A stretch of DNA of 20,519 bases from Candidatus Undinarchaeales archaeon (GTDB lineage Archaea; SpSt-1190; JASMDC01): positions 1 to 20,519 of the forward strand of contig JASMDC010000054.1 in assembly GCA_030753015.1 (NCBI GenBank), written 5' to 3'. This document shows positions 472 through 5,920 of this stretch, piece by piece. The position numbers and the translations under genes were made by a program. The stretch's first letter is position 1; every line of letters begins with the position of its first letter. The notes below the pieces were generated by a model that was not told where the DNA came from, made no database searches, and worked only from the letters and a program-made list of their open reading frames with translations.

Positions 472-590
472 GGGGACCGGGAGGTTACTGAAATTTATTT
501 CAGTAACAGTGGTACGACCTGCCACCCCACCCTTTCTCTTCGACCCCCATGGACCACGGAGGGGCACCCACGTCAGATGACCGTCCACCG
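472..590. repeat. Array repeat copy R1 (right part: core inverted repeat + GC hairpin)
   Basis: GTTACTGAAAT-TT-ATTTCAGTAAC at 484-507 is a perfect 11-bp IR; CCATGGACCACGGAGGGGCACCC at 547-569. Confidence 0.85.
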
Positions 591-607
591 GTACCACCGC
601 AGGGCCC

Positions 608-907
608 TCACCCGCCCCCGAGCTTTCCTTCGTCCTCCGACGCCAGCACGACCTCCCGTGCGAACACTTGCGCCCCGTAGCGCTCCAAAAGACCGATGAC
701 CGTACCGGCTCGATCGCTCGCGACCACCAGCACCGACCGTACGGGCCGCAGGTGCGACACCCTGTGGAGGAGGCCGTCACGCTCGTAGGTGTATCGGCCG
801 TTGTTGGACCTGTCCGTCCAGCCGTAGAGCTCGCGGTCGAGCCTGGTCCTGGCCCTGTCGGAGAGACCGGCGGACGCCAGATCGTAGCAGATGATCGTTG
901 CAAGCAT
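608..907 (-). CDS. Small Cas2/VapD-like (ferredoxin-fold) protein, 99 aa
   Basis: N-terminal beta strand IICYDL then a helix, later RSVLVV, as in Cas2-like folds. Visibly similar to the C-terminal domain of 9394-10035. Fills the space between R1 and R2. Confidence 0.6.
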   Translation of the reverse strand: MLATIICYDLASAGLSDRARTRLDRELYGWTDRSNNGRYTYERDGLLHRVSHLRPVRSVLVVASDRAGTVIGLLERYGAQVFAREVVLASEDEGKLGGG

Positions 908-1100
908 CTCTACAGTAGTATAGTGCGGTGATAGTATGAGAAGCTCTGTATACCCCCCGGCGGGGTACCAGTAACATATAAGTCGGAAAGGGACATCGAG
1001 GATTACTGAAATTTATTTCAGTAATAATGGGACGGTCCGCCAGAGCATGACGCCCCTGCCAGCCCCCATGGACCACTCAGGGGCACCAACGTCAGTTGAT
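904..1100. repeat. Array repeat copy R2
   Basis: GCATCTCTAC..GTGCGGTGATAGTATGA block; TACCCCCCGGCGGGGTAC 951-968; ATTACTGAAAT-TT-ATTTCAGTAAT 1002-1025; CCATGGACCACTCAGGGGCACC 1066-1087. Confidence 0.9.
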
Positions 1101-1193
1101 CGTACGTACAACAGAACGCCCGCCCGCACCCCGCCCCCCAACAGCAAACCATAAATACCGCCTTCTGCGCCGCCGGTCCACAGGACGGCCCAC

Positions 1194-2027
1194 ATGATCG
1201 ACGGAGAAGAGCTCGAAGGGTACTCGGCAGGCATCGTGCCCCCGTACATCGAGCAGGCCCACGACGAGATGGCCTTCAGCTGCAAGCTGGAGTACACCGA
1301 CCTCCTCAGCCCGCAGAGGTACGAGTATCATACCAAGGCCCAGAAGCAGCTCGTGGAAAAATGCCACGAGTACGTCGCCCAACGCCTCGGCGGCACGAAC
1401 GGCGACGGGTCCGGAAAGGCCCTTCTGATGGTCACCCACCCCTTCTACGAGGACGCCATGCGCGAGGCGGGCGAGCGTGACGAGGCCGAGGGCACCTACC
1501 AAGAACGCCTTGCGGCCTACGAGGATAACCTCCAAAAGCTCCTTTCAGAAATAGACCGGGACCGGTTCGACGTGGTGCTGCTGGAGGTACCCGAGCACTT
1601 CGCGTACCCGGGCTCGCGCTCCCGCCAGCTGGTCGACGAGCATCTGGTGGACGACGTGGTGTTCACACACTACTCCGAGGGCTCGCTGCTAAAAGACGAG
1701 GTAGAGCGTGTTGTCTCCGGATACGACGCCTACCTGGTGGCCGGCGCTTACGGGGAATACTGCGCCCAAGCGTCGCTCGACACCGTGCCCCCCGACGGCA
1801 CTGACCGCAGGTACGCCGTCACCGACGCGCTCCTCTCCTACGAGCATCTGCACAACGACGAGGATCCCCTGAGGTCCATGGCCCTCTCCTACGACGACAC
1901 CGAAGGCTTCACCTGCGTGGACGAGGTCTTATCCGATAAGCTCGACCTGGACACCGGGAAGGTCACCGGCCGCGAGCGGGGGTTCGCACGAGCGCTGAAG
2001 AAGGCGCAGGAGTGGGCAGAGGACTGA
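1194..2027 (+). CDS. Acidic hypothetical protein, possibly cysteine-hydrolase/isochorismatase-like fold
   Basis: 277-aa ORF with host-like codon bias and a TATA-like CATAAATA at ~1150. Motifs LLMVTHPF and YLVAGAYGEYCAQAS loosely resemble the isochorismatase G...e.C segment. Confidence 0.6.
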   Translation: MIDGEELEGYSAGIVPPYIEQAHDEMAFSCKLEYTDLLSPQRYEYHTKAQKQLVEKCHEYVAQRLGGTNGDGSGKALLMVTHPFYEDAMREAGERDEAEGTYQERLAAYEDNLQKLLSEIDRDRFDVVLLEVPEHFAYPGSRSRQLVDEHLVDDVVFTHYSEGSLLKDEVERVVSGYDAYLVAGAYGEYCAQASLDTVPPDGTDRRYAVTDALLSYEHLHNDEDPLRSMALSYDDTEGFTCVDEVLSDKLDLDTGKVTGRERGFARALKKAQEWAED

Positions 2028-2028
2028 C

Positions 2029-2126
2029 GGGGATCACTGAATTTTAGTTCAGTAACAATGGTACGATCAGCAGATTCTGGTGTCCCAACAGCCTCCATGG
2101 ACGCGAAAGGGGCACCCACGACCGTC
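2029..2126. repeat. Array repeat copy R3 (right part only)
   Basis: TCACTGAA-TTTTAG-TTCAGTAA at 2034-2055, 6 bp after the upstream stop; CCATGGACGCGAAAGGGGCACCC at 2095-2117. Confidence 0.85.
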
Positions 2127-2147
2127 CCTTTTCCCGTGATGTCGTGA

Positions 2148-4310: not shown

Positions 4311-4511
4311 CGTCCGATGACGTCCGTGCCCCCGTCCTTGCGCGCATCTCCAATCATACCCTGGTGCAGCGATAGTATGAATTGCTCTGTACACTCCCCG
4401 GCGGGGTAACATGAACGTATAAGTCGGACACAGCAGATCACGGGTTCTTAGTTCAGTAACATGTTGACGCTCCCGTAAGCCCCCATGGACGCGGGGGGGG
4501 CGACAACGTCA
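4311..4511. repeat. Array repeat copy R6
   Basis: CCGTCCTTGCGCGCATCTC..GATAGTATGAA; CACTCCCCGGCGGGGTAA 4392-4409; half-site TTCAGTAA 4452-4459; GCCCCCATGGACGCGGGGGGGGC 4479-4501. Confidence 0.85.
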
Positions 4512-4793
4512 ACGGTCCATCCCCTCATATGCATCGTCCCGGTGCGAGATGCGGGCGATCCAGAGCGTGTCCTTTTCAGCCTGGAAGATGACGCGATGGT
4601 CACCGGAACGTAGTCTGAAGATGCGTTCTTTCTTTGCCGTGCCTTGAAGTTTCTTGATATCGAGCCGGCATGATGGGGATAGGAAGGTGCGGGCGAGCTC
4701 GCGGATATCCTCGATGATCTTGTCCCGGATCGACCCCCGGACCCGGTCGAGCTCCTTGAGGGCCTTGGGATGGATACGGACGCGCAGGCTCAT
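4509..4793 (-). CDS. RelE/ParE-family toxin
   Basis: VRIHPKALKEL...IKKLQG....FRLRSGDHRVIF......IARISHRDDAY, 94 aa. Confidence 0.9.
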   Translation of the reverse strand: MSLRVRIHPKALKELDRVRGSIRDKIIEDIRELARTFLSPSCRLDIKKLQGTAKKERIFRLRSGDHRVIFQAEKDTLWIARISHRDDAYEGMDR

Positions 4794-4978
4794 ATCGCCT
4801 CATCGAGGTCCACGAACTCCTTCTTGGCATCAAGGCGACGTCGGACCTCCTCGATATACGTCTCCCGGTCCACGATGTCGAGGATGCGTGCAAGGATCTC
4901 GTCGTAGGTATCACCCTTCGAGCCCAGGCTCTTGAGTCGGTCACGTACAGCCTCGGAGACGGCGATCGTCGTCGACAT
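4790..4978 (-). CDS. Small antitoxin (RHH-like N-terminus), 62 aa
   Basis: MSTTIAVSEAVRDRLKSLGSKGDTYDEIL with an acidic tail FVDLDEA; ATGA overlap with the RelE gene. Confidence 0.85.
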   Translation of the reverse strand: MSTTIAVSEAVRDRLKSLGSKGDTYDEILARILDIVDRETYIEEVRRRLDAKKEFVDLDEAI

Positions 4979-5004
4979 TATAGTTGTTATGGTCGTTATA
5001 TCTA

Positions 5005-5300
5005 TTATATCCTCCGGTCCGTCACATGGGTTTTCGCCCGTCACCTTGCGCTCATCTCTACCGTTCCATGGTGCGGCGATAGTATGAAAAGCTCTGTATA
5101 CCCTCTTGAGAAGTACTGGATACGTATAAGCGGGACGGGGACACAGAGATTTACTGTACTTTAATTCAGTAATCCCCAACGGATCCGGGACACAGAAAAG
5201 TACTGTACTTTAATTCAGTAATATCGGGATGACCTGCTGCTATGGCTTTCCTTACAACGATCCCGGACCACCGAGGGGCGCAAATGTCCGTGGATCAGGT
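5005..5300. repeat. Array repeat copy R7 with tandemly duplicated core site
   Basis: TACCCTCTTGAGAAGTAC 5099-5116; TTACTGTA-CTTTAA-TTCAGTAA 5151-5172 and GTACTGTA-CTTTAA-TTCAGTAA 5200-5221; degenerate hairpin at 5261-5279. Confidence 0.88.
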
Positions 5301-5311
5301 ATCGACTATGA

Positions 5312-5650
5312 TCAGACGATCTGCCCTTTCAATTCCTCGATGTTCCGCTCGTTCATATCCTTCTTCTTCCCGATACCGGCCTTCCCCCTTCGAATGATAC
5401 CTTCGTCGATGAGGATGTTCTTCATCTGTTCGAAGGGGATCCCCGCGATCTCGGCAGCACGGGATATCGTGATATCTACGGTCCGATATCTCTTCAGAGC
5501 GATGACGAGCCGTTCCTTGGACTTCTGGGAGAGGAAGGAACGAATGGCATCACGGAACAGCTCGGAGCGATTATCATAGTAGCCTTCATCGATAAAGGCC
5601 TGGATATCCTCGCTCATCTTCTTTGGTATCGTTATGGTCACCATGAACAT
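5312..5650 (-). CDS. RHH + UPF0175-like antitoxin, no adjacent toxin
   Basis: VTITIPKKM...YDNRSELFRDAIR...ITISRAAEIAGI; paralog of 3913-4257. Confidence 0.85.
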   Translation of the reverse strand: MFMVTITIPKKMSEDIQAFIDEGYYDNRSELFRDAIRSFLSQKSKERLVIALKRYRTVDITISRAAEIAGIPFEQMKNILIDEGIIRRGKAGIGKKKDMNERNIEELKGQIV

Positions 5651-5730
5651 TCACTATTAATTATTAACATTAACAAATACTAATAACTTTCTATTAGTCT
5701 ATAGGATATCTCCCCCTGACGCGGGAAAGG

Positions 5731-5920
5731 GCCGTCCGATGGCGTCCGTGTCCCCGTCCCTGCGCTCATCTCCACGGTATCATGATGCGCTGATAGTATG
5801 AATAATACTGTATACCCTTGCGCGGGGTACATCTGGATCTACTGAACAATTGTACCGTAGGAATGGGACGACCTGCTGTGATGGCTTCCCTTACAACGTC
5901 CATGGACCACGGAGGGGCCG
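5731..5920. repeat. Array repeat copy R8
   Basis: CCGTCCCTGCGCTCATCTC..GATAGTATGAA; TACCCTTGCGCGGGGTAC 5813-5830; degenerate core CTACTGAA-CAATTG-TACCGTAG 5839-5860; CCATGGACCACGGAGGGGC 5900-5918. Confidence 0.85.

Follow-up and report, generated by a model that had tools for sequence, protein, structure and literature searches.

Small genes stacked as exchangeable cassettes at site-specific recombination sites are known from integrons (PMC9668308) and, less securely, from dif modules (PMC6449649, PMC13141974, PMC12907356), as outlined in these sources. The subject here is an array of small cassettes in the genome of a marine Candidatus Undinarchaeales archaeon, contained in a stretch of 20,519 nucleotides (contig JASMDC010000054.1 of assembly GCA_030753015.1; the window in what follows), and the 22-bp palindrome at its joints, TTACTGWA-N6-TWCAGTAA, also written TTACTGWA-N6-TTCAGTAA and here called P1. 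We propose, with a confidence that is about even, that P1 is a site-specific cassette junction, namely the exchange point of a modular site of ~250 bp in a chromosomal array upstream of a tRNA-Glu gene. The window is the whole of contig C67 in an assembly of 3.85 Mb and 117 contigs (genome G000), and is compared below with G001, a sister genome from the same genus.

In outline, integrons are cassette arrays built from IntI, attI and attC, and those reported in archaeal metagenome-assembled genomes are of the canonical IntI/attC kind (PMC9668308). The pdif modules of Acinetobacter, which often carry toxin-antitoxin genes between Xer-type sites, are described as being shuffled between replicons by a recombinase supplied in trans, through a mechanism still largely inferred (PMC6449649, PMC13141974, PMC12907356). 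The dif site of archaeal XerA is presented as having 11-bp arms, being essentially single-copy and being conserved including its spacer (PMC2958812, PMC8371274). Our search of the literature on integron-like or Undinarchaeota-linked systems found nothing resembling the present array. To our knowledge, the archaeal integrons reported so far are canonical IntI/attC systems only.

The P1 array appears to resemble an integron or the Acinetobacter dif modules in its logic, and neither in its parts. As in an integron, small cassettes rich in toxin-antitoxin genes are lined up on a chromosome, mostly in one orientation, with a site at each joint and a tyrosine recombinase at the end; their content varies between relatives, and their GC content at third codon positions (GC3) is uneven, as in chromosomal integrons. 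The differences lie in the integrase, which scores 24.5 bits against the integron-integrase model TIGR02249 (cut-off 265) and so does not qualify as an IntI; in the joint, which is a near-perfect double-strand palindrome of 22 bp within ~250 bp of arms, whereas attC is an imperfect hairpin of 55-140 nt (R''-L''...L'-R') folded by a single strand; in the cassettes, which appear to have their own promoters; and in the tRNA gene that separates the integrase from the first site. Inspection of the junctions by eye found no attC-type boxes (GTTRRRY/RYYYAAC). The nearest analogue in site type and cargo is provided by the pdif modules, which are likewise discrete units bounded by two-arm sites with a 6-bp spacer and found in different contexts (as are cassette 4 and the mini-cassette described below). 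As far as they are described, however, pdif modules belong to plasmids of bacteria, lack long conserved arms and have asymmetric XerC/XerD sites that alternate in orientation, whereas the P1 array is on an archaeal chromosome, with symmetric arms of 8-9 bp, a single orientation and 150 + 80 bp of accessory sequence.

With dif itself P1 shares the inverted arms around an AT-rich spacer of 6 bp, in a genome that encodes XerA-like proteins; but its arms are 8-9 bp long (8-9 of 11 on extension at the stand-alone site), its copies are many, where a dif would be essentially alone on its chromosome and close to the replication terminus, and its spacer varies between sites, so that the Xer/dif identity suggested in an earlier note on this DNA is doubtful. 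In its size (~240-250 bp) and its division into a central core, a long arm (~150 bp) and a short arm (~80 bp), the P1 junction recalls a lambda-type attP; its three CGTCC repeats at ~11-bp spacing recall arm-type sites, and the order of the array (flank-core-arm, then arm-core-arm) recalls tandem insertion. Unlike lambda or tandem elements, the cassettes contain no integrase, the junctions lie outside the tRNA gene, upstream of it, and no arm-binding domain was identified in the integrase. REP (repetitive extragenic palindromic) and BIME (bacterial interspersed mosaic element) sequences of bacteria are short palindromes, conserved and placed downstream of genes, in many cases where two genes converge, and are insertion hotspots for mobile DNA. 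P1 and a related palindrome, P2, share with them the extragenic position after genes, and differ in their very low copy number, in the lack of a RAYT/Y1 transposase and in the long conserved arms that enclose P1 in the array.

Palindrome and junction repeat

P1 occurs in full at 485-506, 1003-1024, 2034-2055, 3682-3703, 5151-5172 and 5200-5221 (R1 to R6), with a degenerate copy at 5839-5860, exactly where the earlier note had placed it; at up to three mismatches these seven sites make 13 matches when both strands are counted, and 100 dinucleotide-preserving shuffles of the window contain none (mean 0.00, maximum 0). The right half-sites reported there are confirmed at 4452-4459 and, as TCAGTAA with one base missing, at 3494-3500, as is the 6-bp spacer, which reads NTTTAN in all six full window copies and keeps this form at only 5 of 9 sites in G001. 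At R3, repeat homology begins ~13 nt to the left of the palindrome, and the TGA stop of the open reading frame (ORF) 1194-2027 lies 7 nt before P1. Other parts of the earlier description carry less far. The complementarity claimed for the flanking base pair (G..C or A..T) is found at R1, R2, R6 and R1 of G001, and fails as a general rule, since 12 of the 16 full sites across both genomes have non-complementary flanks. The most perfect copies were said to be those nearest the integrase, and the youngest cassettes likewise; site perfection shows no steady fall along either array, and the first cassette is old, being present in both species. Mid-stem T.T or A.A mismatches leave the pairing of the stem unmaintained at 6 of the 16 array sites.

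P1 is the centre of a composite junction repeat of ~250 bp, consisting of an L arm (~150 bp), P1 itself (22 bp) and an R arm (~80 bp). The L arm contains three CGTCC repeats ~11 bp apart and a conserved CAT, followed by GATAGTATGA, CTGTAYACCCC..GGGGTAC, ACGTATAAG and GGGACAC; the R arm reads AATGG.ACGA ... GCCCCCATGGAC..GGGGCAC and holds a GCCCC..GGGGC hairpin beside the 3' end of the cassette gene. A profile of the full junction, run with nhmmer over the whole 3.85-Mb genome, finds nine units, all on the contig of the window (E <= 8e-25), the next-best match being to the core only, on C20 (E = 0.018). The conserved CAT is the ATG of the cassette-1 gene, and together with the GATAGTATGA box, which lies 47-73 bp from P1 within the array, it looks like the promoter and start of that gene, copied into every L arm.

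The junction repeats separate ~8 cassettes between the tRNA-Glu gene and a gene for archaeal-type GAPDH. Most of these are toxin-antitoxin genes, with GC3 ranging from 0.56 to 0.85, and the GC content of the array is 55.6 % against 63.5 % downstream. All units have the same orientation, cassette 2 alone being coded on the plus strand. R1 joins the chromosomal (tRNA) flank to P1 and an R arm, the inner joints are of the type L arm-P1-R arm, and the distal end is decayed. A reading of the junction as structured RNA was considered and rejected: core plus R arm (both strands) and L arm fold weakly (-6 to -7 kcal/mol) with almost no covariation, RNAalifold returns only a P1 hairpin of 7-9 bp and a weak CCCC/GGGG stem of 4-5 bp, and an Rfam search of window 1-7000 at E <= 1 matched the tRNA alone. 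Since the arms lack convincing RNA structure or covariation, their conservation is at the DNA level; the arms are under purifying selection.

The features from the start of the window to the end of the array are as follows.

3-296, minus strand: integrase fragment, codons 1-98 of a Xer-like tyrosine recombinase of 416 aa that ends in a C-terminal zinc ribbon
352-430, minus strand: tRNA-Glu (UUC), between integrase and array
485-506: P1 R1, with the tRNA flank on the left carrying only ~13 nt of L-proximal motif and an R arm on the right; 22/22 identical in G001
507-590, plus strand: R arm of junction 1, AATGG.ACGA ... CCCCCATGGAC..GGGGCAC
608-907, minus strand: cassette 1, a 99-aa protein whose family is widespread in archaea and has no known function; shared with G001
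860-1002, plus strand: L arm of junction 2, with GATAGTATGA, CTGTAYACCCC..GGGGTAC, ACGTATAAG and GGGACAC
1003-1024: P1 R2, where homology with G001 ends
1025-1104, plus strand: R arm of junction 2
1194-2027, plus strand: cassette 2, a 277-aa ORF with no family match, running head-on into R3
2034-2055: P1 R3, TCAC variant, 7 nt after a stop codon and without L arm
2056-2127, plus strand: R arm of junction 3
2148-3315, minus strand: cassette 3, HEPN-like (2148-2729) and winged-helix (2719-3315) proteins; the HEPN match is under the Pfam cut-off (20.2 vs 22 bits), as are the winged-helix HTH matches under theirs
3354-3576, plus strand: junction 3b, with L arm, decayed palindrome (3480-3501, one base lost) and R arm
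3603-3722, plus strand: junction 4, with incomplete L arm, P1 R4 (3682-3703) and the stub of an R arm truncated by a deletion
3692-4353, minus strand: cassette 4, a 74-aa remnant of a 162-aa G001 ORF (no family) and an RHH/UPF0175 antitoxin-like gene
4291-4517, plus strand: junction 4b, with L arm, palindrome with decayed left half (4438-4459) and R arm
4509-4980, minus strand: cassette 5, a ParE-family toxin (4509-4793) and its RHH/DUF7557 partner
5005-5297, plus strand: junctions 5 and 6, with L arm, P1 R5 (5151-5172), a 27-bp mini-cassette, P1 R6 (5200-5221) and R arm
between R5 and R6: cassette 6, the 27-bp 'empty' mini-cassette
5312-5650, minus strand: cassette 7, a solitary RHH (CopG/UPF0175-like) gene
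5713-5936, plus strand: junction 7, with L arm, degenerate palindrome (5839-5860) and R arm
5974-6080, plus strand: cassette 8 and decayed array end, a remnant of a cassette-3-like gene start and the beginning of an L arm, followed by the GAPDH promoter

Kinship between junctions switches within the palindrome

For a comparison of junctions, 18 sites, named by coordinate with the prefix A for G000 and B for G001, were anchored on the palindrome and compared over 30 nt per side, site B11347 being off register by 8 nt. Six of the 153 pairs are at least 80 % alike on one side and at most 55 % on the other, and the switch falls within the palindrome in all six, which is where the earlier note had expected the breakpoints of a crossover site to lie. 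Between the G001 junctions at 14460 and 15562 there is no difference in the 110 nt that begin at the CAT, continue through the L arm and spacer and end at palindrome position 15, the first base of the right arm; beyond that position they are only ~60-75 % alike. Such a sharp switch inside P1 is what a fixed cleavage point would predict, and would be hard to obtain from general homologous recombination alone; it thus favours the former.

Within the 16 array sites, the class of the spacer (C/GTTTAG/A vs the rest) is fully linked to the type of the left arm (ACTGTA vs ACTGAA; counts 7/0/0/9) and unlinked to that of the right arm (3/4/2/7), and left- and right-arm types assort independently, with hybrids at 6 of 16 sites. 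In the pair A5151/B7796, the two junctions are different as far as the last base of the spacer (position 6) and match once the right arm begins. Combined with the linkage results, this confines the exchange point to the stretch that starts at spacer position 6 and closes with the right arm, the edge between spacer and right arm appearing as the simplest fit to the sequences. The earlier reading of P1 as a crossover site is thus supported in part, by the cassette boundaries at P1 and the switch of kinship within it; the array is not a canonical integron, and an identity of P1 with dif is doubtful.

The sister species and the distribution of the array

Cassette content and order change between the two species; the joints remain. 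G001 keeps the same layout of integrase, tRNA-Glu, R1 and cassette 1 (81 % identical), and R1 is identical at 22/22 positions although its flanks are only ~75 % identical. Homology stops at the end of P1 R2, beyond which the cassettes differ in content or order, so that the boundary of the variable content lies at the putative recombination site. The G001 array extends from 7257 to ~15640, with sites at 7257, 7747, 7796, 7845, 7894, 9538, 14460 and 15562 and a half-decayed one near 11355; its cassettes include MNT-type nucleotidyltransferases, an AAA_14 ATPase and an NHL-repeat paralogue. Cassette 4 of G000 is homologous to the G001 cassette at 14553-15493 (locus L026), which is at the far end of that array and thus in another position. 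The 27-bp mini-cassette recurs between G001 sites 7796 and 7845 (22/27 identical), where three 49-bp units of P1 plus mini-cassette follow one another. A CRISPR-like reading of these tandem cores was rejected, the 27-bp sequence between the cores being homologous between the species. The four mini-cassettes are all 27 bp long (49-bp period), although only ~50 % identical to each other.

Junction DNA was found in two of 41 relatives, G000 and G001, and exact P1 sites in two of 17 genomes of the phylum, from which the junction system appears to be known only in this genus. A scan of metagenomes with the L-proximal motif plus P1 gave 28 loci, of which 27 were chance matches and one came from the same organism; viral contigs, searched with the integrase and with P1 plus the R-proximal pattern, matched neither. 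Public sequencing data contain the exact array in 20 runs (13 studies) of marine or seawater origin, with no RNA run listed among them: nine of these (5 studies, 2019-2025) contain all sampled words of window 300-6300, and 11 more a part of them. The organism is either unusually clonal and widely recovered, or a recurrent contaminant. G000 and G001 measure 3.6-3.8 Mb, vs 0.6-1.2 Mb for the 15 other genomes of the phylum examined, and the contamination estimate is 5 %; the placement and purity of the two large assemblies may merit checking.

Proposed exchange at P1 and the candidate enzymes

Under the explanation favoured here, the two arms of 8-9 bp would be bound by a site-specific recombinase, in all likelihood one of the tyrosine type, with strand exchange taking place where the 6-bp spacer meets the right arm. 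The cassette unit would then run from the right half-site through the R arm, one or two genes with their own promoter and the L arm to the left half-site and spacer, and cassettes could be excised, inserted and reordered with their transcription units intact. We favour exchange at P1 because it explains the junction types, the differences between species, the sharp switch and the linkage of spacer and left arm, and it would be the most economical account of the array. Cutting at P1, the enzyme that cuts and any present activity are what we infer from these patterns.

The window begins within the integrase gene and therefore holds only its first 98 codons; the whole protein of 416 aa (Phage_integrase plus zinc-ribbon) is encoded on a metagenome contig that matches window 1-3024 at 99.8 % identity, and the G001 orthologue has 433 aa (Phage_integrase plus Zn_Ribbon). 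With 88 bits against the archaeal XerA model (cut-off 220) and with its TIGR02249 score, whose best stretch covers residues 243-276 only, it is under both cut-offs and is thus a generic Xer-like recombinase, neither IntI nor XerA proper. The genome also has XerA-like genes at three loci, with 223-239 bits (cut-off 220; two within C31:53-2286 and one at C76:963-1730), in frames of ~370-380 aa, one of them with a TAG stop and all at contig ends; the pair on C31 is probably part of a mobile element, since the matching region of G001 lacks it.

A number of observations weigh against exchange at P1 as set out above, or against the part of the adjacent integrase in it. The integrase is on the 3' side of the tRNA gene, which separates it from R1; the cargo to its left differs between the species, G000 having genes for a CBS-HTH protein, a metallophosphoesterase and proteins without assignment where G001 has a type I restriction-modification system; in G001, integrase and tRNA are separated by a 21-nt duplicate of the tRNA 3' end; and in run X17 a single low-depth contig is exact over window 355-536 and ~80 % alike to the left of 355, the tRNA 3' end, a variant joint as would be expected if another strain carried a different island or a variant of the integrase. 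Position, cargo, duplicate and joint are marks of an island integrated at the tRNA 3' end, which is probably the att site proper to the integrase; the link of P1 to the adjacent integrase, drawn in the earlier note, is accordingly doubtful. None of the five inspectable loci of more distant integrase relatives has a junction-type array (0/5). The spacer sequence is not constant from site to site, and such variation should impede exchange between the sites by a classical tyrosine recombinase. Palindrome position 16 is polymorphic even within one R-arm lineage, because of which the exchange point is mapped no finer than a 9-nt window, and the array sites are related by descent, so that Fisher p-values overstate the case for linkage. 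Contigs from four of the 20 runs (4 studies; depth 2-7), all four among those with a part of the sampled words, are letter-identical to the window and contain no structural variants or alternative joints, and hence give no sign of ongoing rearrangement. Finally, perfect copies of P1 without arms, and copies of P2, are scattered 28-74 nt after stop codons and conserved between the species, a pattern that an extragenic hairpin or an element bound by a protein would explain equally well.

The adjacent integrase remains a candidate enzyme for P1, with its position arguing for the tRNA 3' end. Searched against the genome collection, it finds only G001 and one relative of 34 % identity; two of the loci of distant relatives are at tRNA-Cys. 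The 34 % relative, on a contig from an unrelated metagenome-assembled genome (L045), is followed downstream by direct repeats of ~95 nt (2931-3031 and 5570-5670) 2.6 kb apart, which may be the att sites of an integrated element, without a P1-like palindrome.

Scattered copies and rival explanations

At up to one mismatch, P1-type sites number eight in G000 and 12 in G001, and P1/P2-type sites together 13 per genome. Copies outside the main arrays (near the TFB, Dph2, DUF498 and LPG-synthase genes) lie 29-154 nt after stop codons, often between convergent genes. In G001, a perfect P1 follows the TFB gene (one of a convergent pair) by 58 nt, and another follows Dph2 by 29 nt, 1 nt before the contig ends; at the Dph2 position G000 has a different palindrome, TTATCAG-N7-CTGATAA, and at the LPG-synthase locus, too, the other species has another AT-rich palindrome. 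The P1 between DUF498 and a LURP/scramblase-like gene is orthologous in both species, with 16/16 arm positions kept and 2/6 of the spacer. P2, GTACTAAAGCATGCTTTAGTAC, is likewise 22 nt long, with arms related to those of P1 ([G/T]TACT[G/A]AA[A/G]), and one copy is a P2/P1 hybrid. All its loci are intergenic (C31:10555, C31:49230, C37:2610, C37:4518 and C84:143486 in G000; C1:265486 and C6:63743 in G001); four of the five G000 copies are 28-49 nt after a stop codon and C37:4518 is 202 nt after one, and two orthologous pairs are conserved at 21/22 positions while their flanks drift.

These scattered palindromes resemble a low-copy REP-like family, and could equally be landing sites for the same machinery. 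Taken as a general reading, and as such the main rival of site-specific exchange, the former holds that P1 and P2 are REP-like extragenic palindromes, hairpins or dimer-binding sites in 3'-end formation, mRNA stability or nucleoid-protein binding. The array would then be a series of small operons with similar intergenic regions, each a 3' module followed by an upstream module, which multiplied through duplication and homologous recombination, and the boundary would fall at the palindrome through its fragility or recombinogenicity, with no dedicated recombinase cutting there; we regard this as possible and somewhat doubtful. It explains the scattered copies better than site-specific exchange does: their positions after stop codons, the intergenic P2 loci with P1-related arms and a hybrid, the arms kept while flanks drift, and the substitute palindromes at Dph2 and LPG-synthase are all as it would have them, as are the place of R3 just 7 nt past the stop of the converging gene, the R-distal hairpin, which is always beside gene 3' ends (including that in the G001 insertion described below), and the 60 AT-rich perfect palindromes of the genome, vs ~7 by a rough hand estimate. 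It explains the array worse, leaving without account the junctions of 250 bp, 70-100 % identical around unrelated genes, and the sharp switch within P1. Moreover, ~6-8 scattered sites in a 3.8-Mb genome are too few for a general terminator, the stem is mismatched at 6 of 16 array sites, in the cassettes coded on the minus strand the hairpin is not followed by a U-run in the direction of transcription, and the REP-associated Y1 transposase (PF01797) is found in neither genome.

P1 could also be the operator of a dimeric transcription factor acting on the L-arm promoters of the cassettes and on a few genes such as the LURP/scramblase-like one, which we consider unlikely. The palindrome between DUF498 and LURP would suit it, being perfect, with conserved arms and free spacer in both species ~60 bp upstream of a TATA-like box, and so would the 47-73 bp between array P1 and the GATAGTATGA box, and a CTG.-N8-.CAG geometry resembling classical dimer operators; many chance matches of the metagenome scan resembled what we take to be LexA boxes. 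The spacing within the array is, however, trivial because the whole unit is a repeat, and of the four non-array copies in G001, three are located downstream of genes or between two gene 3' ends and do not precede promoters. The earlier note had named a constant spacing to numerous unrelated promoters as the mark of an operator; this is not found, promoter distances varying and scattered copies following stop codons; the cassettes have no candidate regulator in common, and the mosaic switch would go unexplained. Less probable still is that P1 and P2 are subterminal hairpins or targets of elements of the IS200/IS605 type (HUH, single-strand), with the cassettes as passenger-carrying derivatives. 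Two of the five G000 P2 sites are indeed within ~200 bp of TnpB genes that G001 lacks, in flanking species-specific insertions, and the exchange window would also permit a cut at the 3' foot of the hairpin; but neither genome has the Y1 transposase (TnpA), the array has no TnpB, seven of the nine about full-length TnpB loci (of 18 TnpB-like loci in the genome) have no P-like site within 500 bp, and P2 lies outside the insertion sequence, since a 90.7 % identical copy of the latter on C106 has no P2.

Site-specific exchange at P1 and the REP-like reading may also be combined, a palindrome family being possibly recognised by the recombinase both at scattered sites and in the array. A wider proposal, which we offer tentatively, is that the locus represents an integron-independent form of cassette capture in archaea, with P1 as universal joint, attP-like arms, exchange at the spacer edge by the zinc-ribbon Xer-like integrase or a XerA paralogue, and the scattered P1 and P2 copies as landing pads. 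If site-specific exchange at P1 is true, small defence and addiction modules can be stacked and shuffled in a second, unrelated way, so that this architecture would have evolved more than once, and cassettes can be shuffled via ordinary double-strand core sites with long accessory arms; with its 22 bp plus arms, the junction would also be a recombination site from archaea small enough to be useful in tests and possibly in tools. If the palindromes are REP-like instead, the interest is narrower, being the first description of such a family in a little-known lineage.

Further observations at P1- and P2-like sites

G001 alone has an insertion of 2.8 kb (C6:94824-97608; L088 9824-12608) in the middle of a P2-like palindrome between convergent genes for LPG-synthase and a metallo-beta-lactamase-fold protein. 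It contains a P1 with L-proximal motif and R arm, an R-distal motif in inverted orientation, and an NHL-repeat gene that seems to be frameshifted and has two paralogues within the G001 array or next to it; its ends are imperfect inverted repeats of ~50 bp. Beside a P2 site in G000 there is a multi-copy repeat of ~170-270 nt (C37:4576-4849 and 4879-5150), also found at C106:95673, C52:25465, C34:18513, C117:99383 and C60:15404; its copies are ~67-82 % identical between loci and 91 % within the tandem pair. A P1-like site with one mismatch is found in an AT-rich intergenic region of G000 (C32:35507-35528), ~870 bp upstream of cdc6/orc1; at the G001 site C5:27903, ~40 nt on each side are near-identical to it, and the left flank maps to C28 of G000. 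These two sites might be associated with an origin, or be due to chance. At the far end of the window, a short TnpB-like fragment (IS200/IS605 OrfB) is present at 20359-20487 on the minus strand.

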